A stretch of 64,000 nt of DNA, taken from an uncultured Acidobacteriota bacterium (lineage in GTDB: Bacteria; Acidobacteriota; Polarisedimenticolia; J045). The position numbers and the translations under genes were made by a program. Numbering within the stretch: position 1 is the stretch's first letter; each line of letters begins with the position of its first letter. The stretch is from the NCBI GenBank assembly GCA_964582785.1, contig CAZOTT010000001.1:15007-79006 (forward strand). Reading direction: 5' to 3'. The notes beneath the pieces are model-generated. The model made no database searches. It had not been told where the DNA came from and was given only the letters and a program-made list of their open reading frames with translations. Shown piece by piece: positions 1,910 to 17,918 of the stretch.

Positions 1910-4084
1910 TCAGAAGCTCCTGCTGACCATCACCGAGAGCACGTTGTACCGGCCCGACTCGTCCTCGAGGATCGGGTCGTTGTCGTGGTAGTCGGTCAGC
2001 GTCCAGCCGAGTTCGAGCCCGTACCCGGACGGCAGCCGCCAGCGGGCCCCGAGGTTGAGGTCCCAGGTGCGGACCGAGACGTCCGACAGCTCGTTGACCA
2101 TCTTCCAGTCCCGCGACAGGAAGGAAGCGCCCACCGGGCTGCCGTACGGGGCGAACATGTCCCAGCGGTCCATGCCGCCGGTCATCCGGTTGTACTCGAT
2201 GCCGCCGAAGAGCTGGCCGTTTTCACCGAAGGGGGTACCGAACTCGGTCCCGAGGAAGGTGCCGTCGATCTGGTAGGCGTCCGAGCTTTCATCCCGCCCA
2301 AACTGGGCGGAGGCGAGGGCGCCCGCTCACCCGTTCATCAGCGGGATACACAGGTGTGTCTCCTGGTCCTCCCGCAGCAGGACCCCCGTCACGGTGGTGT
2401 AGAACCGCTCGTTCGGCGTCCACCAGAGGGACGCGCCGACCTCGGCCACGTCGTGGGTCCAGTCGGACACCCGCGTCTGGTCGTTCTGCTCCGAGAGCCA
2501 CTTCCCGTGGAGCGTCAGGGTCGTCTGCTCGGAGGGCACCAGCGTCAGCCGGGTCCGCAGGGCGATCCGGTCCGTGGGCCGGTTCGACAGGTCGGCGATC
2601 CGCCGGCGGTGCAGCTCGAAGTACTGGAGGGACGACCAGGGGAAGTTGGCCGGGTCCGCCACCAGGGCCGGGTCCTCGCCGACCGCGAGGCAGCCGCCCT
2701 TCAGGTTGCGGAACGGGTCGCTGGCCTGGTACCACTCCGCCTCGACCCGGTAGCGGGCGCCGTTCTCGAACCGGCCGAGGAGCTGGGTCCTCAGGGTGTA
2801 CTCCCGGGTGTTGGTCCCGCCACCGTTGTCCACCCGGAAGTTGTCCCGGTCGATGTCCCGGTAGCGCAGGGAGGTCTTCAGGCGGTGGCGCCGGTGTTCC
2901 CCGAAACGCCACACGTACTCCCCGGCCGCGGAGACGACCGTCCGGTCCGCGGCGGACCGGCGGGTCCAGTCGATCTCCACGTCCCGGTCCGCGTAGACGT
3001 CCCGGTAGTAGAGGCCCGCCTGCGGCCCGGCGGAGCCCGGGTACTCCACCACGTCGACGAAGACGTCGTCCGTGTCGACGTTCTCGAGGCGCCCCCGGAG
3101 CGAGAAGGAGTGGGCCTCATCCAGCACGTGGAGCCAGCGTGCCCGGAACGAGTAGTACTTCGCCCGGAGCCCCGTGTGGTCGCTCTCGGCCTTCTGGTAG
3201 GCGGCGGCGGCGTCGAGATGGTCGTGCTCGCCGGTCCAGAAGAGGTGGAGCACGTGGGCGTCCCGGTCATGGCCGGGAACCAGGCCCACCGGCAGGGTCA
3301 CGGGGCCGCCGATGCCGAAGCTCGCCCGGTTGTCGAACACCGGAACCTTCTTCGTGGGGTGGAGCACCTGCTCGAAGACCCGCCGCACCGGGTCGGCGTC
3401 GGCGTCGAAGTTGCTCGAGGTGTACTCGTAGCGCACCCCCCAGTTCGACTTCAGGTAGGCCACCCGGAGGGTGACGTCGTCCATCGTCTGGTCGACGGAG
3501 GCCGACTGGCCGACGATGTGGCAGGTGCGGCAGTGGCCCGCGGAGAGCTGCTGGTGGCTGCCGGACCGGCGCATGTGGCGCGCCAGCAGGGCGAACTCCC
3601 ACGCCCGGTTGTTCACCGGCCGCCAGGCCAGCCGCGCGTGGTCGTCCTCGAACCGGTAGCGGTACCTCGCCCCGGGGTCCATGTCATCGTGGCGGACGAC
3701 CTTGCCGTGCTCGTCCGTCGCGGCGAGGTTCTCCAGCGGATCGTGGGGCAGGTTGTGGACGAAGCGGTTCATGTCCGCCTCGAAGGTGAAGGCATGGGCG
3801 GCGACCAGCTCCAGGTGGTGCCGCTGGTCGTCCGGGTCGAGCAGCTCCATGTCCAGCGACAGGCTGGTGTCGCCGCCGAACCCGGCGTCGAACCAGGCGG
3901 AAAACGCCGCGCTCGACGAGTCCACCTGGTATTCCGCCGCCTTGTTCCGGCTGTTCCGCGCCCGGACCACGTGGGCCCCCACGGCCACCTCACCCGATCC
4001 CCCGCCGTCGTCGGCCGGCACGGCCGGCACGGCGAGCGCCAGGGCGAGGACCGCGAGGAGAACGATCGGCAGTCTGCGTTTCAT
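1910..4084 (-). CDS. MtrB/PioB-family outer-membrane porin of a porin-cytochrome conduit (about 724 aa). The frame is interrupted by an in-frame TGA at 2327-2329. Upstream segment is 2330..4084, downstream segment is 1910..2326.
   Basis: Signal peptide MKRRLPIVLLAVLALALAVPA. Long beta-barrel-like sequence. Both segments are in the same frame with strong GC3 bias. The C-terminal segment ends ...NVLSVMVSRSF with an aromatic terminal residue typical of OMPs. The stop overlaps the 5' side of the mtrA-like gene. Confidence 0.7.
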
Positions 4085-4097
4085 GGGGTGGTCCTCC

Positions 4098-5060
4098 TCA
4101 ACGGGTGAGCGCCCGCCCCTGGCCCACGGTCGACTGGCTCGGGAGATCCGAACCGTGGACGGAGACGTGGCACTGGGTGCACTTGGTCAGGAAGGCGTGC
4201 TTCATGCCGTTCCTGCCGAACGGATTGTCGAAGGTGTCGCCCCCGTAGACGACCTCGGTCTCCTCCGGGCCCGCGAGCCCCGCGTGGAAATGGGCCTCGT
4301 GGCAGGTCAGGCAGATGTAGGGCTCGGTCTGTGCGAGGAGGCGCGGCGCCACCGACCCGTGGGGCTTGTGGCAGATGGTGCAGTCCTCCTCCACCGGCTC
4401 GTGCTGGAAGACGAACGGGCCCCGGTACTGGGGGTGGCACGAGAGGCAGAGATCGTTCTTCCGGAACTCCGTCTTCAGCAGGCCCGGCGTCGTGCCGTGG
4501 GGATCGTGGCAGGACGCGCAGGTCATCTTCCCCTCGGGGACCGGGTGGTGGGAGGGCATCCTCGTCTCGGCCCGCACCTCCGGGTGACAGGAGAAGCACT
4601 TCTCCTCGGGAACCTCCTTCGCCCGGTGCCCCAGCCGGGCCGCCGCCCCGGCCTTCGCCGGGTCGGGATGGATCTCGTGACAGTCGAGGCAGGAAAGCCC
4701 CGCCCGGGCGTGTTCGCTGGCCGGCCAGGCTCCCATGTGGCTGACCGAGGCATGGCACCCGAGGCAGGTCGCGGAATCCTTCGCCGGGTCATCGCCGGGA
4801 AAGTGCCGGATCAGCGCGGGATCGGCCTCCTCCACGTGTTTTTCCGTCGGTCCGTGGCAGGAAGCGCAGGCCCGGGAGAGCCCGAACCAGTCTCCCTGCA
4901 CCAGCTTCCCGTGGGGGGTGGCCGCGAACGACGCCACGAGGTCCTCGTGGCAGTCGGCGCAGGCCTGGCCCGGTGGGTCCGCCGCCCGGCTGGGCGGCCC
5001 GAGGGCCCACAGCCCGACCAGGGCCAGGGCCCCGGCCAGTCCGATGCTGAGGCGTTTCAT
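4098..5060 (-). CDS. MtrA/PioA/MtoA-family periplasmic decaheme c-type cytochrome (320 aa, 10 CXXCH motifs).
   Basis: Signal peptide MKRLSIGLAGALALVGLWALGPPSRA, then CADCH, CASCH, CLGCH, CLDCH, CFSCH, CASCH, CLSCH, CTICH, CLTCH and CTQCH. Size and heme count match MtrA. Sits immediately upstream of the porin on the same strand. Confidence 0.85.
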   Translation of the reverse strand: MKRLSIGLAGALALVGLWALGPPSRAADPPGQACADCHEDLVASFAATPHGKLVQGDWFGLSRACASCHGPTEKHVEEADPALIRHFPGDDPAKDSATCLGCHASVSHMGAWPASEHARAGLSCLDCHEIHPDPAKAGAAARLGHRAKEVPEEKCFSCHPEVRAETRMPSHHPVPEGKMTCASCHDPHGTTPGLLKTEFRKNDLCLSCHPQYRGPFVFQHEPVEEDCTICHKPHGSVAPRLLAQTEPYICLTCHEAHFHAGLAGPEETEVVYGGDTFDNPFGRNGMKHAFLTKCTQCHVSVHGSDLPSQSTVGQGRALTR

Positions 5061-5299
5061 CCGATCTCCCTCCTTGCGCTCCCCCGGGGGAGCGGCTTGC
5101 CCCGGGTTCATCGATTCCCGGGAAGATGCGAACGGACGCGGCCGCCCGGCCGCGGATTTCCGGAGGACACACCCCCGCCTCCGGCCCTCCCGCGGGCCCG
5201 GGGAAGCGGGGCTTTCGCGGCGGGGCGGGCCGCACCGGCCTGCCCGTTGGCGAACAGTCACGTGCGCCTGGAAACGATCACGGTCACGGCTCCTCCGAC

Positions 5300-5400
5300 C
5301 GGGGGGAAACATACCGAACAGTCAGCCGACGGGTCAAGCGCGCTTACTTACTTGCAAGTGGAGGCCGATTCCGGCTAGCCTTGGCCGATTCCACCCCCCG
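5300..5400. promoter_or_regulatory. Divergent regulatory region between the mtrA-like (-) and cbcL-like (+) genes. Contains perfect palindrome ACTTGCAAGT (5350-5359), direct repeat GGCCGATTCC x2 (5363-5372 and 5383-5392) flanking palindrome GGCTAGCC (5373-5380), and a minus-strand candidate sigma70 promoter (-35 TTGACC about 5332-5337, -10 TATGTT about 5308-5313).
   Basis: Locally lower GC. Repeats and palindromes read directly from the sequence. Confidence 0.4.
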
Positions 5401-5537
5401 GCGGGGATCACCGAGGGAGCCGGTCCCCGCCGCCGGCCGCCGGCGCGGCCGCGCATCATCTCGCCCGGATCGACCGGGGCGGCGCCGATGCCGGGCGCAA
5501 CCCGACACCGGCTCGTCCGGGCCAGGGAGGAGCCACC

Positions 5538-7595
5538 GTGAACCGGAAGATCCGTCCGGGCGGGCGGCAGGGAGTCCTCGCGGGGCTGGCGGCGCTCACG
5601 CTGCTGGCCGCCCTCGCGGGCGTTCCCGCGGTCGCCATCGACGACGACACCTGCCTCGCCTGTCACTCCGACCCCGACGCGCTGTCCGAGGCCGGCGACC
5701 GCGCGAAGGACCTCGTGGTCACCCCCGACTCCCTCGCGGGGTCGGTCCACGAGGGTTTCTCCTGCACGGACTGCCACCAGGACCTGGCTCCCGACGACGC
5801 GGAGATCCCCCACCCGCCGGAACTGCAGCCGGTCGACTGCAGCCAGTGCCACGACGACGTGGCGGAAGGGTTCCACGCCAACTCGGTGCATGCGACCGCC
5901 ATCCGGCCGCGTCCCGGCGCGCGCAGCGCCTGCAGCGCCTGCCACGGGAACCACCACATCCTTGCCGTGGGGGACGCGGAGTCGCCGGTCTCCCGGCAGC
6001 ACGTGGCCGATCTCTGCGCCCGCTGCCACGAACCGGCGGCGGACCACGGCGACCCGGTCAGCCAGTGGAAGGACTCGATCCACGGGCGGGCGGTCCTCCT
6101 CTGGGAGGTCGAGGAGGCCCCGACCTGCGTCGCCTGCCATCCCGCCCACGCAATCCGGCAGCCGGAGGACCCGGCGGCGGCGATCAACCGGCGCCGGGTG
6201 ATGGACACCTGCGGCAACTGCCACCCGAGCGAGCGGAAGGCGGTCCTGCGGGGTGTCCACGGGAAGGCCTGGCAGGAGGGCAACCTGGCGGCGGCCACCT
6301 GCGTCGACTGCCATGGTTCCCACGGCGTCGACCGCCCCGGGGAGCGCGCCTCGACCGTCTACGCCGCCCGGGTCAGCGAGACGTGCGGCAGGTGCCACGA
6401 CGATCCGGACCTCGCCGTGCGGTTCCACCTGCGGCCCGACCGCGTCGCCACCTACCGGCAGTCCTACCACGGCAAGGGAACGGCCTGGGGCTCCCCGGTG
6501 GTCGCGAACTGCTCCTCGTGCCACGGCTACCACGACATCCGCGGCATGAACGACCCGGCCTCGACGATCTACCCGGCCAACCTCAGGGAGACCTGCGGCA
6601 AGGCCGCCTGCCACCCGGGCGCCAGCGAGCAGTTCGTCCGGTTGCCGGTCCACGCCGACCGCTTCTTCATCCCGCCGACGGCGCGCCTCGTCCTCCGCTA
6701 CCTCCGGATGGGCTACATCCTGATCATCTCCCTGACGATCACCTTCATGGTCGTCCACCAGGTCCTGGAAATCCGGGCGATCCTCCGGCTGCGCCGGGAG
6801 ATCCGGGCGGCCGAACGGAGGGGCCACCGCCACCTGGCGACCCTGCCCCCGGTGGAGCGACCGGCGCGGGAACCGCTCTCCCGTTTCGTGACCCGGGACG
6901 GGAAGCACTACGTCATCCGGTGGGACGTCAACCAGGTGGTCCAGCACATCCTCCTCGTGGTCTCCTTCACCACGCTCGTCATCACCGGCTTCCCGCTGGA
7001 GTTCCCCGCCTCCTGGGCGAGCCACCTCGGCAGCCTCGGCCCGGTCCTGTTCGACCTGCGGGGGATCCTGCACCGGGGGGCCGCGATTCTCCTGATCCTC
7101 GTCTCGATCTACCACGTCGGGTGGCTGCTCTTCACGGGCCGCGGCCGGCGGGAACTGTGGGAGCTCGTTCCCCAGCCCCGGCGGTTCCGGCGCAAGCTGG
7201 TGGGCAACCTCCGCTGGTTCCTCGGCCTCGAAAAGGAGCCCCCGCCGGGAGTGCGGTACACCTACCGGGAGAAGCTGGAATACTGGGCCCTGGTCTGGGG
7301 CAACTTCGTCATGATCACGACCGGCATCATCCTCTGGACGGCGCCGCGCTGGCACTACATGGTCGTGGCCGTCGCCCGGCTGGTGCACAGCTACGAGGCG
7401 CTTCTCGCCCTGCTGGCGATCCTCGTCTGGCACATGATCGGCGCCCACCTCAAGCCGGGAATCTTCCCGATGAACCCGACCTGGCTCACCGGCGGTCTCG
7501 ACATCGAGGCGTTCCGCGAGGAGCACGCGGAAGAGTACGCGAAGATGGTGGCCTGGTACGGGTTCGATCCGATGACCGAGGAGGTGGGCCGATGA
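5538..7595 (+). CDS. CbcL-like inner-membrane quinol:cytochrome oxidoreductase. N-terminal periplasmic multiheme cytochrome c (about 10 CXXCH plus one CX4CH) fused to a C-terminal FdnI/HydC-type dihaem cytochrome b membrane domain.
   Basis: GTG start with RBS AGGGAGGAG. Signal peptide. CLACHS, CTDCHQ, CSQCHD, CSACHG, CARCHE, CVACHP, CGNCHP, CVDCHG, CGRCHD, CSSCHG, CGKAACH. The C-terminal domain has TM helices with conserved His (HQVLEI, VVQHILLVV, HRGAAILLILVSIYHVGW, VHSYEALLALLAILVWHMIGAH). Confidence 0.8.
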   Translation: MNRKIRPGGRQGVLAGLAALTLLAALAGVPAVAIDDDTCLACHSDPDALSEAGDRAKDLVVTPDSLAGSVHEGFSCTDCHQDLAPDDAEIPHPPELQPVDCSQCHDDVAEGFHANSVHATAIRPRPGARSACSACHGNHHILAVGDAESPVSRQHVADLCARCHEPAADHGDPVSQWKDSIHGRAVLLWEVEEAPTCVACHPAHAIRQPEDPAAAINRRRVMDTCGNCHPSERKAVLRGVHGKAWQEGNLAAATCVDCHGSHGVDRPGERASTVYAARVSETCGRCHDDPDLAVRFHLRPDRVATYRQSYHGKGTAWGSPVVANCSSCHGYHDIRGMNDPASTIYPANLRETCGKAACHPGASEQFVRLPVHADRFFIPPTARLVLRYLRMGYILIISLTITFMVVHQVLEIRAILRLRREIRAAERRGHRHLATLPPVERPAREPLSRFVTRDGKHYVIRWDVNQVVQHILLVVSFTTLVITGFPLEFPASWASHLGSLGPVLFDLRGILHRGAAILLILVSIYHVGWLLFTGRGRRELWELVPQPRRFRRKLVGNLRWFLGLEKEPPPGVRYTYREKLEYWALVWGNFVMITTGIILWTAPRWHYMVVAVARLVHSYEALLALLAILVWHMIGAHLKPGIFPMNPTWLTGGLDIEAFREEHAEEYAKMVAWYGFDPMTEEVGR

Positions 7596-8431
7596 AGACG
7601 ATCGTCACCGCCATGGCGGTCCTCGCCTTCGCGCTGGCGCCCGGGCAGGCGGCGGGCAGGACGTCCTGCGACTGTCACGACGGGCTGGCCCCCCGGGAGA
7701 AGGCCCCCCGCATCGACCTGCGCGGCTGGCTCACCGACGGGGTCCACCGGAAGCAGGGGTGCCTGGCCTGTCACCCCGGCGCGGACCAGGTTCCCCACCG
7801 GGGGAAGGTCCTCACCGTGTCCTGCGCCTCCTGCCACGAGGCGGAGGCGAAGGACTGGGACCAGACGGTGCACGGCCGGGTGGAAGGGAAGGTTCCCGGC
7901 ATCCGGGGGTGCATGACCTGCCACGTGGAACACGACTGGTTCGCGGCGAACGATCCGCGGTACCGCTATACCAACAGCGGGCTGCTCCGCACCTGCGTTT
8001 CCTGTCACCGGCCGACCCAGGTGGAGTGGAGCTTCTCGATCCCGGTCAAGCCGCCCCCCGGGGGAGGTCACTGGCCCGCCTGCATCCACGGGCACATCGT
8101 GCGGGGCGGCCAGCTCTTCATCGCCGCCTGCGAGTCGTGCCACGGGGCCCACCAGGTGTTCCCCGCGGACGATCCCCGCTCCGCGGTCAACGTGGCGAAC
8201 ATCGAGAAGAACTGCGGCCGGTGCCACGAGGGCCTGGACCCGGAGCGGATCGTGACGTCGCTCTGCGTGCGCCGGGACACGGCCCGCTGGTACGTTTCGA
8301 ACTACTTCGATGTCTGGTATCTTTGGACCGGGGGCATCGCCGCCCTGTCGATCTTCGGCCTCCTGGTCATGGGGATGGTCGGGGCGTCGCTGCGGCGGAA
8401 GAAGAAGGATGGCGCCCCCCCGGTACGCTGA
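7592..8431 (+). CDS. Multiheme c-type cytochrome (about 6 CXXCH plus an unusual CDCH) with a single C-terminal transmembrane anchor.
   Basis: ATGA overlap with the preceding gene. Signal peptide MKTIVTAMAVLAFALAPGQAAG. CLACHP, CASCHE, CMTCHV, CVSCHR, CESCHG, CGRCHE. C-terminal YLWTGGIAALSIFGLLVMGMVGASLRRKKK. Confidence 0.75.
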   Translation: MKTIVTAMAVLAFALAPGQAAGRTSCDCHDGLAPREKAPRIDLRGWLTDGVHRKQGCLACHPGADQVPHRGKVLTVSCASCHEAEAKDWDQTVHGRVEGKVPGIRGCMTCHVEHDWFAANDPRYRYTNSGLLRTCVSCHRPTQVEWSFSIPVKPPPGGGHWPACIHGHIVRGGQLFIAACESCHGAHQVFPADDPRSAVNVANIEKNCGRCHEGLDPERIVTSLCVRRDTARWYVSNYFDVWYLWTGGIAALSIFGLLVMGMVGASLRRKKKDGAPPVR

Positions 8432-8488
8432 ACCGGGAGACGGAGGCCGGGCGCAGGCGCGCCCGCCGGGGAAAAAGGAGGAAACACG

Positions 8489-8863
8489 GTGCGCAAGATC
8501 CTGTTCCTGCTGACCGTGGTGGCCGCGCTCGGGCTCGTCGCCGTTGCCGCCGAGATCCCGAAGGACAAGCAGGTCCTGCACTTCAAGACGATGATGGGCA
8601 CGGTGACGTTCAGCCACCGGGCCCACGTCGACCGGGCGCCGAACGGCTGCGTCGACTGCCACCACAAGACCAAGCCGGGGGAGATGCCCCAGCCCTGTTC
8701 CGCCTGCCACCAGAAGAAGAAGGCCGAGGGGAAGAAGCTCAAGCTCAAGGATGCGGTCCACAAGCGGTGCTGGGGCTGCCACCAGAAGAACCTGGACGCC
8801 GGCAAGAAGGGCGGCCCGGTCAAGAAGGACTGCAAGGTCTGCCACGTGCGCAAGAAGAAGTAA
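8489..8863 (+). CDS. Small periplasmic tetraheme cytochrome c3-family protein (124 aa).
   Basis: GTG start with RBS AAAAAGGAGGAAACA. Signal peptide. CVDCHH, CSACHQ, CWGCHQ, CKVCHV. Lys-rich. Confidence 0.8.
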   Translation: MRKILFLLTVVAALGLVAVAAEIPKDKQVLHFKTMMGTVTFSHRAHVDRAPNGCVDCHHKTKPGEMPQPCSACHQKKKAEGKKLKLKDAVHKRCWGCHQKNLDAGKKGGPVKKDCKVCHVRKKK

Positions 8864-9168: not shown

Positions 9169-12100
9169 TCAGAAGAGCTTGAGGACGAGGAACATCGCCT
9201 CCACGTCCCCCTCCACCGGGTCCAGGTCGCTCCGGAGGGCGTACCCGACGTCGAAGCGCAGGATCGTCTCCCACGGGCCGAGGAAGCTGGCCGCGACCCC
9301 GACGCCGGTGTGGTCCGTCATCCCGGGAGCGATCCGGGGATCGTGCACCCGGGCGTGGTCCAGGACCGCGTCGAAGCGCACGACGTCCGAGATGTTGAAC
9401 GAGTACTTCACCTGGGCCAGGAGCCCGTGGTCGTACCGGATGCCCGACCCGCCGAAGCCCCGCAGCCGGTCCCCCGACAGGAACCCGAAGGTGAACGACG
9501 AGAACCGGTCCAGGTCGTCGCCGGCCTGGTACCTGGCGGACACCTCGATCTTCTGGAAGAGGGGCAGGAACCAGCTCTTCTGGACGCCCGCCCACCAGGT
9601 CGTCCAGTCCTTCGTCCGCGCCACCTCCTCCCGGGTGGCCACCGCGCCCTCCGGGCCCCAGGGAAGCCAGTCGGACCGGTCGTGCCACGAGGCCCCGGTC
9701 ATCAGGCTCCATCCCTTCCGGTCGAAGGCCAGTTCCAGTTCCTCGATCCGCTCCCAGTGGTCCGCCGGCACCACGAAGCGCCGCGTGTCCTCGTGCCGCT
9801 GGTAGACCACCCGGTCCATCTCTCCCATTGCCCGCAGCTTGACGAAGCTTCCCAGGGGAACGCCCAGGTTCACCCGCAGGGCCTGGCGCAGGCGCTGCAG
9901 CCGGTGCGACTCGATTTCCTCGCCCCGGACGTAGTCCTTGTCGGTGGAAGGGTAGCCGACGGCGTTCAGCGTCACGCCGAGGTCGAGCCGTCGGCCCAGG
10001 ACACTGGGGTCGGAATAGGTGACGTTGGCGAACGCGCCGGCGAAGAAGACGTTCAGGATCTTCTTCCGGCCGAAGAGATTGATGTTCGTGTAGTTGACGC
10101 CCGCGAGCGGGATCACGCCCTCCGTGCCCTCGTCGTACAGGGCGCCCCCCAGCAGGAACAGCTGGGTCGGGTCACCCTTCTCGTTGACGACCCGGCGCCC
10201 GTCCTTCGTCTTCGAGAGCCACTTGAACCCCTCCGGCGTGTCCCGGAGCATCTGCCGGTCGGAGGCGTACGTGCGCGCCCGCAGGTCGGCGAACCCGGGG
10301 TCGTTGATCTCCGGGGGCCCGAAGGTGATCTGGCGCAGCACGACGAGGTTCGACCCGTTCACGGTGTAGATCTGCTGGCCGGAGAGCTCCTCGAGAAGCC
10401 AGTAGGTGGTCCCGTCCGGTCCCTCCCAGGGACGGAACAGCTGGGTCTGCTCGTCGCTGATCGCCGGCGGGGTCAGCTCGGTCTGGACCGACGACACCTT
10501 GACCAGGGCGCCGGTCGCCTGGTCGATCCACGCGCGCCCCCGGTAGAGGGATGCGCCCGGCGACAGCGGCTGGAAGCGGAGCCGCCAGCAGCGGCGCCCT
10601 TCCACCTCCTCCTCGCCCTCGAGCCGGTACCGGTAGCGCCGGTCCAGGTTCAGGTCGAGGGGCAGCGCGACCACCCGGTCCTTCGTCACCAGCGGGATCT
10701 CCGGGATCTTCTTCCACTTCAGTTTCACGCCGTCGAAGAACGTTTCGCGGATCGCCCACTCCCCGCCGGTTTCCGGGTCCCAGAACCAGTCGGCGTGCAT
10801 CTCGATCTCGAAGGTCCCGGTGACCTGGGCATACCGCACGCGGAACTTGATCCATCCCTCCCGGTGCACGTTCCGCAGGCGATCGTCCTGGAACGAGCGG
10901 AACCGCTGGTGGAAGGCGATGATCTCGTCGGGCGTCACCCGGTGGACGCCCGCGACTTCCTCCCGCTCCTCGGCGAGGTCGATTCCCGGCGAGACCCGGA
11001 GCCGGTTGACGAGCAGCATCCGGGGCCGGCGGGCGAGGGGCGCCTCGACCCGCACGTGGGCATCGTCCAGGGGCACCGCCCGCAGGAAGCGCTCCGTCCC
11101 GGTGAGCGGGTCCACGGCCCGGTAGCCCCGCCGCATCGCCTTCTCGAAGACGAACGCGGCCCGGGCGTCCCCGGGGACCCCGGGACGGCCCGCCCAGTAG
11201 AAGAGGACCTCCCGGAAGCTCCGGTCATCGAAGAAACGGACCCAGCGGACCGGCACCGGGCCCGGCTGGACCTCGATTCCCGCCCCCTTCCGCGGAGAGA
11301 GCCCGAGCCCCGGCCCGAGGACCCGGGCGATCGCCTCGAGGGCCCCCGCGGTGGCGCGGGCCGCCGCCGCGTCCTGTTCCGGCAACCGCAGCAGGGTGGC
11401 GTCCGCGCCCGCGGCCAGCAGGTCGAGGGCCCGGGCCAGGACGTCGTCCGAGGCGGCTTCCCCCCGGGTCTCCGCCCGCGCATCGGCCAGGACCAGCAGG
11501 GCCGCCCCCGGGTCGAGGGTCCGGAGTTCCTCCCGCAGGGCGCTCACGGCCTTCCCCGCGTCCCGGCCCACCGGGAGGACGAGGGTCACCCCGTCCACGT
11601 AGGGGGCCAGGTCCCCCGTGGCCTTCCAGGCGCGGGCCAGCAGGTCCACCTCGGGGCCCTCGTGAACGACCACGTCCACCGCGGCGGCCGGGTCCTCCCC
11701 GTGAATCGTGACCGAGGCGGCCTTGATCTCGTAGGCGGCGAGGCGGGCGTCCCCCGCGGTTCCGGGGGCGGGCAGGAAATCCGCCAGGAGCCACGCGGCC
11801 ACCTCCCCCTTCAGTTCCCGGGCCCCCGCCCGCAGCATCCGCAGCCAGTCCCTCCGCCGGGCCTCGAGGCCGGTGCCCGGAACGGCGGGGGACCCGTGGA
11901 CCAGCACCGCCACCCGCGCCCCCCGGGACCGCTGGGCCCGGACACGCTCGACGAGGGGAGCCGGGTCCGGCGTTCCGCCCCGGGGAAACAGGTCCCGGCA
12001 CCGGGTCTCGACGACCACCCAGGGGACACCGTCTCCCGGGGCGGCCTCCCCGTGGCCGCGGGCCGCCGGCGTGATCCCGCTGCCGGCCTCGACCCAGCCG

Positions 12101-12243
12101 AGGGCGTGGACCGGAACCGCCGGCTGGACCAGGCCGGTGACCGCCGGGCGGGCGGGGCCGGCCGCGTGGACGGCCCCCGGGAGGAGCAGGGCCGGGAAAA
12201 GGATCGGGAGGACGCGGAGCAGCAGCTGGCGGGTCGCCGTCAT
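9169..12243 (-). CDS. Large (1024 aa) secreted outer-membrane protein of unknown function. Signal peptide, Ala-rich N-domain, central LolA-like domain, and C-terminal putative beta-barrel ending in Phe.
   Basis: Start MTATRQLLLRVLPILFPALLLPGAVHAAG with RBS GAGGAGAA. C-terminal ...VEAMFLVLKLF. Central segment WIKFRVRYAQVTGTFEIEMHADWFWDPETGGEW...YRGRAWIDQATGALVKV resembles LolA-like lipoprotein-carrier folds. The rest of the 1520-aa track ORF upstream looks non-coding. Confidence 0.6.
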   Translation of the reverse strand: MTATRQLLLRVLPILFPALLLPGAVHAAGPARPAVTGLVQPAVPVHALGWVEAGSGITPAARGHGEAAPGDGVPWVVVETRCRDLFPRGGTPDPAPLVERVRAQRSRGARVAVLVHGSPAVPGTGLEARRRDWLRMLRAGARELKGEVAAWLLADFLPAPGTAGDARLAAYEIKAASVTIHGEDPAAAVDVVVHEGPEVDLLARAWKATGDLAPYVDGVTLVLPVGRDAGKAVSALREELRTLDPGAALLVLADARAETRGEAASDDVLARALDLLAAGADATLLRLPEQDAAAARATAGALEAIARVLGPGLGLSPRKGAGIEVQPGPVPVRWVRFFDDRSFREVLFYWAGRPGVPGDARAAFVFEKAMRRGYRAVDPLTGTERFLRAVPLDDAHVRVEAPLARRPRMLLVNRLRVSPGIDLAEEREEVAGVHRVTPDEIIAFHQRFRSFQDDRLRNVHREGWIKFRVRYAQVTGTFEIEMHADWFWDPETGGEWAIRETFFDGVKLKWKKIPEIPLVTKDRVVALPLDLNLDRRYRYRLEGEEEVEGRRCWRLRFQPLSPGASLYRGRAWIDQATGALVKVSSVQTELTPPAISDEQTQLFRPWEGPDGTTYWLLEELSGQQIYTVNGSNLVVLRQITFGPPEINDPGFADLRARTYASDRQMLRDTPEGFKWLSKTKDGRRVVNEKGDPTQLFLLGGALYDEGTEGVIPLAGVNYTNINLFGRKKILNVFFAGAFANVTYSDPSVLGRRLDLGVTLNAVGYPSTDKDYVRGEEIESHRLQRLRQALRVNLGVPLGSFVKLRAMGEMDRVVYQRHEDTRRFVVPADHWERIEELELAFDRKGWSLMTGASWHDRSDWLPWGPEGAVATREEVARTKDWTTWWAGVQKSWFLPLFQKIEVSARYQAGDDLDRFSSFTFGFLSGDRLRGFGGSGIRYDHGLLAQVKYSFNISDVVRFDAVLDHARVHDPRIAPGMTDHTGVGVAASFLGPWETILRFDVGYALRSDLDPVEGDVEAMFLVLKLF

Positions 12244-15119: not shown

Positions 15120-17918
15120 ATGGGAGCGCCACGCACGTCTCGCCTGCCGGCCATCCTCCTCCTCGTTCTCGGTTCCCTGGTGGCCTTTCCACCGGCCGCC
15201 CGGGGCCAGGACGCCGACGAATGCCTTTCCTGCCACGAGGACCCGGACCTGACCGGCGAACGGGACGGGAAGGAGATCCCGGTCCACGTGGACCCGGATG
15301 CCTTCCGGGAGTCCGTCCACGGGGACCTCGCCTGCGTGGCGTGCCACCGGGACCTCGAGGGAACGGACTACCCGCACCGGGAGTCCACCGCTCCCGTCGA
15401 CTGCGGCCCGTGCCACGACGAGCAGGCGGAGGAGTACCGGCAGACGATCCACGGGATCCGGGCGGCGAAGGGAGACCGGCTGGCGCCCACCTGCGCCACC
15501 TGCCACGGCAGGCACGACATCCTTCCCGCGAGCAACCCCCGCTCCCGCACCGCGATCATGAACATCCCCCTCCTGTGCGGGGAGTGTCACCACGAGGGCA
15601 GTCCCGTCTCCCGCACCCACGACATTCCCGAGGAACGGATCCTGGAGAACTACTCCCAGTCGATCCACGGCGAGGGGCTCTTCCGCAAGGGCCTCACGGT
15701 GACGGCGGTCTGCACCTCCTGCCATACCTCCCACCGGATCCTGCCCCACACGGACCCCCGGTCCTCCATCCATCCGCACAACGTGGCGCGGACCTGCACG
15801 AAGTGCCACGCCCGGATCGAGGACGTCCACAAGAAGGTGATCGAGGGGCGGCTGTGGGAAGAGGCCCCGCACAAGATTCCCGCCTGCACGGACTGCCACT
15901 CTCCCCACAGGATCCGCAAGCCGAGTCCCGTCCAGGGCGCCGCCAACCGGGACTGCTTCCGCTGCCACTCGAACCGCGACCTGTACATGGTCCGGAACGG
16001 GGAGCGGATCTCCCTGTACGTGGACGAGGCCGCCTGGAACGCCTCCCGCCACTCGGGGGTGGCCTGCGCCCAGTGCCACACCGAGGTGAACTCGGCGGCG
16101 AAGCGGCCCTGCTCGACGATCCGCTCACCGGTGGACTGCTCGATCTGCCATGCCGAGGTGGTCCGCCAGTACGAGGAAAGCGCCCACGGCCGGCTCGCGG
16201 CGAGCGGCGATCCCGATGCGCCCCGGTGCCTGACCTGCCACGATCCCCACGCGACGGAGGGACAGCACGTCCCCACTTCCAATACCTACCCGCGGAACGT
16301 CCCGGACCTCTGCGGCAGGTGCCACGCCCGGGGCGGGGTCGCCGACCGTCGCCTCCGCACCCCGATCGACATCGTGGCCAGCTACCGGCAGTCGATCCAC
16401 GGCAAGGGCCTGCTGGAAAGCGGCCTCGTCGTCACGGCGACCTGTACCGACTGCCACACGGCGCACCACGTTCTCCCCCCGGACGACCCGGACTCCTCGG
16501 TGAACCCGTCCCTGGTGGCGGACACCTGCGGCAACTGCCACCGGGGGATCGAGGAGGCCTTCCGCCGCTCGGTCCACTGGCCCGGCAACACCCGGACCGA
16601 CCGCCGGCTTCCCACCTGCGAGGACTGCCACACCTCCCACCAGATCGCCCGGACCGACAGGCCCGGTTTCCGCACCTGGATGATGGAGCAGTGCGGCAAC
16701 TGCCACCACGACGAGGCCGACACCTTCTTCGAAACGCCCCACGGCAAGGCGTCCCAGCTCGGCGACGAGCGGGTGGCCAAGTGCTTCGACTGCCACGGCA
16801 CCCACGACATCCTGCCGGTGGACGATCCCCGCTCCACCCTCAGCCCGACCCACGTCGTCCAGACCTGCCGCAAGTGCCACGAGGGAGCCCACCTACGGTT
16901 CGCCGGCTACCTGAGCCACGCCACCCACCACGACCCGAAGAAGTATCCCTGGCTGTTCTGGACCTTCTGGGGCATGACCTCGCTGCTGGTCGGGACCCTG
17001 GTGTTCTTCTCTCTCCACACGGTCCTGTGGCTGTGGCGTCTCTGGCGGACCCGGGAGCAGTGGCGCCCGCTGAAGGCCCGGGCGGCCCGGGCGACGAAGT
17101 TCTACCGCCGGTTCGACGCCCGCCAGCGGGCGATGCACCTGGTGATGATGCTCAGCTTCTTCACCCTGGCCGTCACCGGGATGACGCTGAAGTTCTCCTA
17201 CATGACCTGGGCCCAGGTCCTCTCGCGGCTGCTCGGCGGCTTCGAGGTGACCTCGGTGCTGCACCGGATCGCGGCGGTCGTCCTGATCTCGGACTTCCTC
17301 TACCACCTCCACGACCTGAACCGCCGGCGGCGGGAGGAGGGCAGGAGCTGGCTCCAGCTCGTCTTCGGACCGGGCTCGATGATGTTCACCGTGAAGGATA
17401 TCCGGGACTTCATCGGCACGGTGAAATGGTTCCTGGGAGCGGGCCCGCGACCGCGGTACGGCCGGTTCACCTACTGGGAGAAGTTCGACTACTTCGCCGT
17501 GTTCTGGGGCGTGTTCGTCATCGGCTCCACCGGGCTGATCCTCTGGTTCCCGGAGTTCTTCACCCGCTTCCTGCCCGGGTGGGCGGTGAACGTGGCGACG
17601 ATCATCCACTCCGACGAGGCCCTGCTGGCGGTCGGGTTCATCTTCACCATCCACTTCTTCAACACGCATTTCCGGCCGGACAAGTTCCCGATGGACCCCG
17701 TCATCTTCACCGGGCGCGTCCCCCTCGAGGAGCTGCGGCACGACAAGCCGGAGGAGTACGAGGAGGCGAAGGCCCGCGGCACGCTGGAAGAACGCCTCGT
17801 CGACCCGATCCCGGCGCCGGTGGAGCGGGCGTTCCGCGTCTTCGGCTTCACGATGCTCGGCATCGGCCTCGTCCTGATCGCGTTCATCGTCTACACGATG
17901 CTGTTCGGCTACCGCTGA
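15120..17918 (+). CDS. Giant CbcL-like fusion (932 aa). Periplasmic cytochrome c domain with 19 CXXCH motifs fused to a C-terminal FdnI/HydC-type cytochrome b membrane domain.
   Basis: Signal peptide MGAPRTSRLPAILLLVLGSLVAF. 19 CXXCH motifs counted (CLSCHE ... CRKCHE). The C-terminal TM domain with conserved His (HLVMMLSFFTLAV, HRIAAVVLISDFLYHLH, HSDEALLAVGFIFTIHFF) is homologous to the C-terminus of the 5538..7595 gene. Confidence 0.85.
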   Translation: MGAPRTSRLPAILLLVLGSLVAFPPAARGQDADECLSCHEDPDLTGERDGKEIPVHVDPDAFRESVHGDLACVACHRDLEGTDYPHRESTAPVDCGPCHDEQAEEYRQTIHGIRAAKGDRLAPTCATCHGRHDILPASNPRSRTAIMNIPLLCGECHHEGSPVSRTHDIPEERILENYSQSIHGEGLFRKGLTVTAVCTSCHTSHRILPHTDPRSSIHPHNVARTCTKCHARIEDVHKKVIEGRLWEEAPHKIPACTDCHSPHRIRKPSPVQGAANRDCFRCHSNRDLYMVRNGERISLYVDEAAWNASRHSGVACAQCHTEVNSAAKRPCSTIRSPVDCSICHAEVVRQYEESAHGRLAASGDPDAPRCLTCHDPHATEGQHVPTSNTYPRNVPDLCGRCHARGGVADRRLRTPIDIVASYRQSIHGKGLLESGLVVTATCTDCHTAHHVLPPDDPDSSVNPSLVADTCGNCHRGIEEAFRRSVHWPGNTRTDRRLPTCEDCHTSHQIARTDRPGFRTWMMEQCGNCHHDEADTFFETPHGKASQLGDERVAKCFDCHGTHDILPVDDPRSTLSPTHVVQTCRKCHEGAHLRFAGYLSHATHHDPKKYPWLFWTFWGMTSLLVGTLVFFSLHTVLWLWRLWRTREQWRPLKARAARATKFYRRFDARQRAMHLVMMLSFFTLAVTGMTLKFSYMTWAQVLSRLLGGFEVTSVLHRIAAVVLISDFLYHLHDLNRRRREEGRSWLQLVFGPGSMMFTVKDIRDFIGTVKWFLGAGPRPRYGRFTYWEKFDYFAVFWGVFVIGSTGLILWFPEFFTRFLPGWAVNVATIIHSDEALLAVGFIFTIHFFNTHFRPDKFPMDPVIFTGRVPLEELRHDKPEEYEEAKARGTLEERLVDPIPAPVERAFRVFGFTMLGIGLVLIAFIVYTMLFGYR

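Follow-up and report, generated by a model that had tools for sequence, protein, structure and literature searches.

The subject of this report is a cluster of multiheme cytochrome genes in the genome of an uncultured Acidobacteriota bacterium, analysed within a window of 64 kb (64,000 nucleotides, the whole stretch of DNA considered; G+C content ~72%). The cluster occupies positions 1910-8863 and consists of two divergent transcription units, with convergent genes on either flank. On the minus strand lie an OmcK-like (GSU2203-family), MtrA-like decaheme cytochrome c (5060..4098; 320 amino acids, 10 CXXCH motifs) and, after a gap of 13 nt between stop and start, an OmcL-like (GSU2204-family) barrel (4084..1910; 724 codons including one selenocysteine (Sec) codon, C-terminal ...VSRSF). 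Beyond a divergent intergenic region of 477 bp (5061..5537), the plus strand encodes CbcL1, a c/b fusion of the CbcL/MtoC/MtrH type (5538..7595; 685 amino acids, 10 CXXCH and one CX4CH), a hexaheme cytochrome c with a C-terminal membrane anchor (7592..8431; 279 amino acids, 6 CXXCH), and a tetraheme cytochrome c3 (8489..8863; 124 amino acids, 4 CXXCH, PF02085). A first-pass annotation, made from the letters of the sequence, had described five genes in two divergent units, and all of them are present. Each of the five proteins has an N-terminal signal peptide and none has a lipobox. The locus is real and probably a working electron-transfer pathway, and its barrel combines a putative heme-binding motif with a Sec residue.

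By sequence, the barrel belongs to the OmcL family. It passes NF041027 (GSU2204 family CXXCH-containing (seleno)protein; 409.9 bits, cut-off 350), the match spanning residues 12-585 on profile positions 2-580 of 580 and ending exactly at an in-frame TGA. The MtrB/PioB equivalog model TIGR03509 is failed with 17.1 bits against a cut-off of 240, and PF11854 (MtrB_PioB), at 29.2 bits against a gathering threshold of 23, covers the N-terminal third only (residues 46-231 on profile positions 6-200 of 635). The GSU2204 family is small, with 224 representatives recovered by an exhaustive search among 1.84 billion proteins, and a scan of a genome collection with a tight barrel alignment gave only 2 loci. 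Its fold was taken from an AlphaFold model of P0139, a full-length Cys-form homolog sharing 24% identity with the window protein. The model contains 26 strands (pLDDT 83, pTM 0.78), and its best match in the PDB is MtrB (6R2Q_B; E = 1.7e-23, TM 0.66/0.73), the next matches falling to TM ~0.35. The family is thereby predicted to have the MtrB fold, yet sequence places the barrel in the OmcL (GSU2204) family, such that the initial description of an MtrB/PioB-like porin is borne out for the fold and not for the family.

The decaheme protein passes both NF041028 (GSU2203 family; 344.1 bits, cut-off 325) and TIGR03508 (DmsE/MtrA family; 226.4 bits, cut-off 192.2), and it aligns over its full length (residues 32-309, E = 8.2e-36) with chain A of 6R2Q. 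Given that the entry is the Mtr complex and that the chain has 333 amino acids, we take this chain to be MtrA. The PDB sequence table labels 6r2q_A as 'Cystathionine beta-synthase', a labelling oddity. By homology the decaheme is an MtrA homolog, as had been proposed at the outset, and a GSU2203-type decaheme gene stands directly upstream of the barrel gene both here and in the loci of all 10 relatives. Because the decaheme aligns with the MtrA chain and the barrel model matches MtrB, the pair appears to work like MtrAB, with the decaheme predicted to sit inside the barrel; by sequence it represents the OmcK/OmcL family.

The in-frame TGA of the barrel gene (2327..2329, minus) corresponds to residue 586, in the context ...CIPLMNG-U-AGALAS..., and the reading frame continues beyond it for 138 further codons to ...VSRSF. 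The codon at this site is TGA in all eight loci with usable DNA, down to ~30% identity. Among the 87 family representatives that reach the site, 73 stop exactly there, after a conserved Gly, whereas two have Cys and two have Gly. Third-position G+C content (GC3) is 0.87-0.94 downstream of the TGA versus 0.96 upstream. Downstream, a candidate Sec insertion sequence (SECIS) hairpin is located at 2293..2311 (minus), with an 8-bp stem and a GUU loop at +19 to +37, beginning 15 nt after the UGA codon. Models of bacterial SECIS (bSECIS) elements describe a hairpin at a short fixed distance after the UGA with G/U in the apical loop, and the barrel hairpin has both features. In an alignment of the hairpin from eight loci, 93.8% of cells are paired, and in four of the eight pairs both partners change; the covariation score is 0.455 compared with a shuffled mean of 0.131, none of 500 shuffles reaches 0.455, and slid registers collapse. 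The Cys-form gene of locus L012 (L numbers denote the loci compared), which carries TGT at the site, has neither the hairpin (4 of 8 positions pairable) nor its encoded peptide 'QFG'. The comparative sequence evidence, namely a conserved TGA, a covarying hairpin, and a frame that stays coding, identifies this TGA as a Sec codon read through a bacterial SECIS, in what is a standard Sec/Cys family.

Gene callers nevertheless split the barrel into products of 585 and 91 amino acids, as would be expected if the gene were a pseudogene or the TGA an error, with the 91-amino-acid open reading frame (ORF; 1910..2185) being spurious or separately expressed. Such an explanation is extremely improbable. 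A pseudogene or a sequencing error is ruled out by the conservation of the TGA, found at the identical position in eight independent assemblies, together with the covariation of the hairpin and the coding frame downstream; moreover, the peptide between the TGA and the first following ATG is conserved and has coding-like GC3, the final four strands of the P0139 model, together with the C-terminal Phe signature, come from the part after the TGA, and NCBIfam curates the GSU2204 family as a selenoprotein. A point on the other side is that no Sec machinery or tRNA-Sec was detected within the window by ARAGORN or Rfam, and the Rfam scan of the window gave no hits at all, including to curated SECIS or riboswitch models. 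A tRNA-Gln(CTG) called by ARAGORN inside the barrel gene (2384-2457, minus), 55 nt upstream of the Sec codon, lacks Rfam support, lies in GC-rich coding sequence, and is probably spurious. Since gene callers cut these barrels at the UGA in 73 of the 87 informative representatives, members of the family are easily missed or misread as pseudogenes. The peptide preceding the Sec, ...C-I-P-L-M-[DN]-G-U (2330-2350, minus), resembles the Sec peptide ...S-I-P-D-G-U of MccSep (ExtKL), the pentaheme polysulfide reductase of Geobacter sulfurreducens. A Cys is present at position -7 from the Sec in 44 of the 73 Sec-type members, and a selenenylsulfide between the two residues is possible on this sequence pattern.

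The second redox feature of the barrel is a CXXCH motif (CRTCH, residues 185-189; 3518..3532, minus), a putative site of covalent heme c attachment; both this motif and the in-frame TGA had been missed by the first-pass annotation. C185, C188, and H189 are invariant in family alignments of 30 and 37 sequences, down to ~20% identity, and in a nearby HxxxHDPL motif H110 and D115 are near-invariant, with H114 slightly less so. In outer-membrane proteins, short turns and both termini generally lie on one side of the barrel, whereas the long loops are extracellular. The P0139 model follows the same plan, with every turn of two to five residues on one side, all long loops on the other, and both termini on the short-turn side. 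The tip between strands 7 and 8 holds the CXXCH, the adjacent loop following strand 5 holds HxxxHDPL, and the Sec falls between strands 21 and 22. Strands 7, 8, 21, and 22 are unusually long in the model (21-24 residues). Because these sites fall on the long-loop side by strand parity, CXXCH, HxxxHDPL, and Sec are all predicted to face outside, which would expose both the barrel heme and the Sec at the cell surface.

These features lead to a tentative proposal, which we hold with less than even confidence, that the terminal redox component is the barrel itself, an outer-membrane beta-barrel that would at the same time be a c-type cytochrome and a selenoprotein. Its heme and Sec, carried on long hairpins outside the cell where the decaheme wire exits, would replace MtrC-type surface cytochromes and might catalyse chemistry on an extracellular substrate, and in Acidobacteriota the barrel would be wired directly to CbcL-type quinol dehydrogenases. 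If the outward placement is true, the outer face gains a selenol and, in the barrel, an eleventh heme, and the missing MtrC-type protein would thereby be accounted for. Two observations weigh against this proposal: the topology derives from the model of a 24%-identical homolog and not from the window protein, and 14 strands of the 26-strand barrel separate the heme hairpin from the Sec hairpin, which puts the two on roughly opposite sides of the rim.

A related but distinct possibility is that heme and Sec form a surface catalytic site rather than a simple relay, acting on polysulfide or S0, selenite or tellurite, or another small or insoluble substrate, with the decaheme as electron supply. 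The strong preference for Sec over Cys (73 of 87 stopping at the Sec codon against two with Cys) is a pattern typical of catalytic Sec, and MccSep, with its similar Sec context ...SIPDG-U, is a proven polysulfide reductase that uses both Sec and heme c (PMC13510729). The Cys at -7, with its potential for a selenenylsulfide, and the ArsR-type regulator found directly upstream of the pair in L012 point in the same direction. However, the neighbouring genes in the window indicate no substrate, the positions of the two hairpins on opposite sides of the rim argue against a joint site, some full-length relatives keep the CXXCH without Sec or Cys, and the likeness to the MccSep motif is short and possibly due to chance. 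Overall, such a catalytic site appears unlikely.

On the plus strand, CbcL1 consists of a periplasmic multiheme domain, one linker transmembrane helix, and a four-helix dihaem b domain of the FdnI/HydC type. The C-terminal domain scores 41.6 bits against PF01292 (cut-off 30.1), and an AlphaFold model of the protein (pLDDT 87) finds FdnI (1KQF_C, TM 0.76) as its best PDB match, followed by HyaC, the cytochrome b of hydrogenase-1. Four histidines (H470, H512, H617, and H632) and the motif C353-X4-C358-H359 are invariant in 42 homologs. The CX4CH reads CGKAACH (residues 353-359; 6594-6614, plus) and stands just ahead of the membrane domain; its conservation suggests an eleventh c-heme with an unusual attachment spacing, in agreement with the count of about 11 hemes given initially. 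The 10 CXXCH plus CX4CH fit the range of 3-23 CXXCH reported for CbcL/MtoC/MtrH (PMC6295460). CbcL1 can thus be assigned, on sequence and model, to the CbcL/MtoC/MtrH architecture, with a b domain of the FdnI/HydC type. Its family is very large, with more than 3000 matches across many phyla. Homology placed neither the porin outside MtrB/PioB nor the b domain outside FdnI/HydC, two outcomes that the first-pass annotation had named as ones that would speak against it.

The hexaheme gene is translationally coupled to CbcL1, its ATG overlapping the CbcL1 stop codon (ATGA), and the same order, with the hexaheme directly after CbcL1, recurs in six of the compared loci (L005, L006, L008, L013, L015, and L017). 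The protein ends with a transmembrane helix at residues 249-267 and passes no curated family model; searches of PDB sequences with CbcL1 and the hexaheme gave only weak, generic multiheme matches. The six CXXCH motifs and the C-terminal anchor agree with the initial description of a protein with six or seven heme motifs, the supposed seventh being probably a CXCH (C-D-C-H) at residues 26-29 (7667-7678, plus), right after the signal peptide. The third protein is a class III cytochrome c3 (PF02085, 54.8 bits against a gathering threshold of 22.9) with four heme motifs, as first described, and is a candidate periplasmic shuttle.

Outside the module, the only further multiheme ORF in the 64-kb window is a second CbcL-type c/b fusion, CbcL2 (15120..17918, plus; 932 amino acids, 19 CXXCH), again an inner-membrane protein. 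It is 32% identical to CbcL1 (E = 2e-84) and has an FdnI-like b domain. Its ortholog is located directly downstream of the barrel in L003, and a further ortholog occurs in L005. CbcL2 may thus offer the pair an alternative partner at the inner membrane. In L003 the barrel and the CbcL2-like gene contain frameshifts (2252-7425), resulting in fragmented public gene calls and a caveat as to assembly quality. No gene for an MtrC/OmcA-type surface decaheme lipoprotein is present among the ORFs of the window, which extends to 64 kb the initial remark that no such gene is adjacent. In the intergenic region, one sigma-70-like site was recognized at 5337-5308 (minus) by consensus match only; terminators showed no excess over chance in the promoter/terminator scan, which is uninformative about co-regulation of the two units.

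Comparison with relatives shows that the linkage of the pair to CbcL-type genes is recurrent but facultative and that the two units are separable. The pair is divergent to CbcL1 in the lineage of the window (L004, L008, and L013) and also in L006, which is only ~43% (barrel) and ~53% (CbcL1) identical to the window and retains the same neighbourhood of Mla genes, an acyltransferase, a protein of ~1000 amino acids, and SAM_HAT. In L001 and L009 the pair is accompanied by a divergent c3 ortholog only, and in L003 by a divergent c3 and then the CbcL2 ortholog directly downstream; elsewhere c3 orthologs follow the CbcL1 operon (L005, L014, and L017). Several observations count against a functional tie between the two units. 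In L005 and L007 the CbcL1 operon occupies the syntenic site with no pair beside it, and no pair is seen upstream of CbcL1 in L016 and L024 either, whose contigs are short or non-syntenic. Conversely, the pair has no other cytochrome gene within 7-10 kb in L010, L011, L012, and the P0140 contig. In a wider set of 80 CbcL-like loci from metagenomes, many of them on short contigs, a decaheme and a barrel are nearby only in L013, of the window's lineage, and in L049, where the pair is of the classical MtrAB-like kind.

These distributions could indicate that the two units are adjacent yet functionally independent, with CbcL1, the hexaheme, and c3 forming a general periplasmic electron-input/output module for other partners, beside which the OmcKL pair has by chance landed as a mobile two-gene cassette. 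The lack of the pair at the syntenic position in L005 and L007, its solitary occurrence in L010, L011, L012, and the P0140 contig, the rarity of such adjacency in the wider CbcL family, and the inter-clade transfer of OmcKL noted previously (PMC10553843) would all fit this explanation. On the other hand, at least three arrangements recur across divergent Acidobacteriota, namely CbcL1 divergent to the pair (the window and L006), CbcL2 downstream (L003), and c3 divergent (L001, L003, and L009), and any conduit must be supplied by some periplasmic donor and some quinol-linked enzyme. Independence of the two units is considered improbable. The facultative linkage fits cooperating modules rather than an obligate self-contained unit, and the earlier term 'self-contained' is too strong for two units that occur separately in relatives.

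Further genes accompany these loci. A 1024-amino-acid signal-peptide protein (9172-12243, minus), which ends in ...LKLF, passes no family cut-off, and has a weak LolA_like match only, is kept beside the CbcL1 operon in L004, L005, and L006, with or without the pair, and may be an outer-membrane protein. Directly upstream of the stand-alone pair, L012 (Cys form) encodes an ArsR/SmtB-type HTH_5 protein (6731-7039) and L011 a sigma-54 activator with PAS domains (7033-8721), which hints that other lineages place the conduit under metal(loid) or redox control.

The interpretation favoured here, with moderate confidence, is that the locus encodes an OmcKL-type conduit, an MtrA-like decaheme in a 26-strand MtrB-like barrel that is more than a passive sheath, being equipped with a heme motif and Sec, together with a CbcL/MtoC-type quinol oxidoreductase operon, and that the two act together as one pathway. 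Electrons would pass from menaquinol to the b hemes and then the c hemes of CbcL1, from there, possibly via the hexaheme, to c3, and from c3 through the OmcK decaheme to the heme/Sec site of OmcL and an extracellular acceptor. The whole path could run in reverse.

An inward path, as in Mto/Pio modules, would carry electrons from Fe(II), reduced humics, or a syntrophic partner to the quinone pool. MtoAB and PioAB also lack a surface cytochrome, CbcL/MtoC homologs are found in Fe(II) oxidisers and Fe(III) reducers alike (PMC6295460), and OmcKL is highly expressed in an electron-accepting partner of anaerobic methanotrophic archaea (ANME) (PMC10553843). However, Fe(III) oxides induce GSU2203/2204 in an organism that reduces Fe(III) (PMC4070692), and the window contains no sign of autotrophy or of a downstream oxidase. 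Inward flow is regarded as rather unlikely.

The constituents of the locus are of known kinds: clustering of a CbcL homolog with a two-component conduit, the OmcKL name, and the Sec and CXXCH features have all been documented. The initial suggestion of a distinct conduit architecture is not sustained, as clustering of mtoAB/mtrAB with genes for the CbcL homologs MtoC/MtrH is known, the architecture of these homologs having been described by Zhong and Shi (PMC6295460), and OmcKL had already been named (PMC10553843). In the literature, GSU2203 goes by the name OmcK, and hematite induces GSU2203/2204 2.4-2.7-fold (PMC4070692). For bacteria that partner ANME, OmcKL has been put forward as a conduit of two components, a porin and a cytochrome, and HotSeep-1 expresses it at a high level (PMC10553843). 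A 2026 review includes the GSU2204 family in its list of prokaryotic selenoproteins (PMC13188914). In Acidobacteriota, the cataloguing of extracellular electron-transfer machinery is recent (preprint 10.64898/2026.05.27.727921), and Mtr-like conduits are being reported. Neither a wiring of OmcKL to CbcL-type genes nor an outward-facing barrel heme motif and Sec was found in the literature searched. How electrons leave the barrel without a surface cytochrome is a standing question for Mto, Pio, and OmcKL conduits, to which the OmcL family suggests an answer. Acidobacteriota dominate soils and peat, and their loci allow a plausible and complete electron route to be drawn, with quinol at one end and the cell surface at the other.

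The closest known counterparts of the pair are OmcK/OmcL of G. sulfurreducens (GSU2203/GSU2204) and the OmcKL of HotSeep-1 and Seep-SRB2. Both window proteins pass the corresponding models (NF041028 and NF041027), the gene order is decaheme-barrel, and the barrel CXXCH, the Sec position, and the lack of a third cytochrome in the operon are shared. In contrast, the window pair is found in Acidobacteriota, divergently beside a CbcL-type operon with a hexaheme and c3, whereas no adjacent periplasmic cytochrome is noted in the OmcKL literature (PMC10553843). OmcK is called 'extracellular' there (PMC10553843), whereas the full-length MtrA homology observed here argues for a barrel-inserted component. 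Shewanella MtrCAB (6R2Q) shares the 26-strand MtrB-like fold, as predicted from the model, and a decaheme homologous over its full length; the window differs in lacking MtrC/OmcA and in having a barrel that fails TIGR03509 and carries CXXCH and Sec. MccSep resembles the barrel in combining a c-type heme, a UGA-encoded Sec, and a SECIS-like hairpin downstream, and in the local motif (...IPDG-U compared with ...IPLM[DN]G-U), but it is a soluble periplasmic tetramer with no detected homology to the barrel, which is an outer-membrane protein with a single heme motif.

On the inner-membrane side, Geobacter CbcL (GSU0274) shares with CbcL1 an N-terminal multiheme c domain and a HydC/FdnI-type dihaem b domain with conserved His, a likeness by architecture; CbcL1 differs in having 10+1 heme motifs rather than 9 and five transmembrane helices after the signal peptide rather than the reported six, and in being followed by a coupled, anchored hexaheme. 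In gene arrangement, the locus as a whole is similar to the MtoAB-MtoC-MtoD, MtrAB-MtrH, and PioAB systems of Fe(II) oxidisers and Rhodoferax, which also comprise a two-component conduit without a surface cytochrome, clustered with a CbcL-homologous c/b fusion (PMC6295460). The carriers are a tetraheme c3 and an anchored hexaheme here, compared with MtoD in the Mto clusters (PMC6295460), and the window barrel is a heme/Sec protein of another sequence family.

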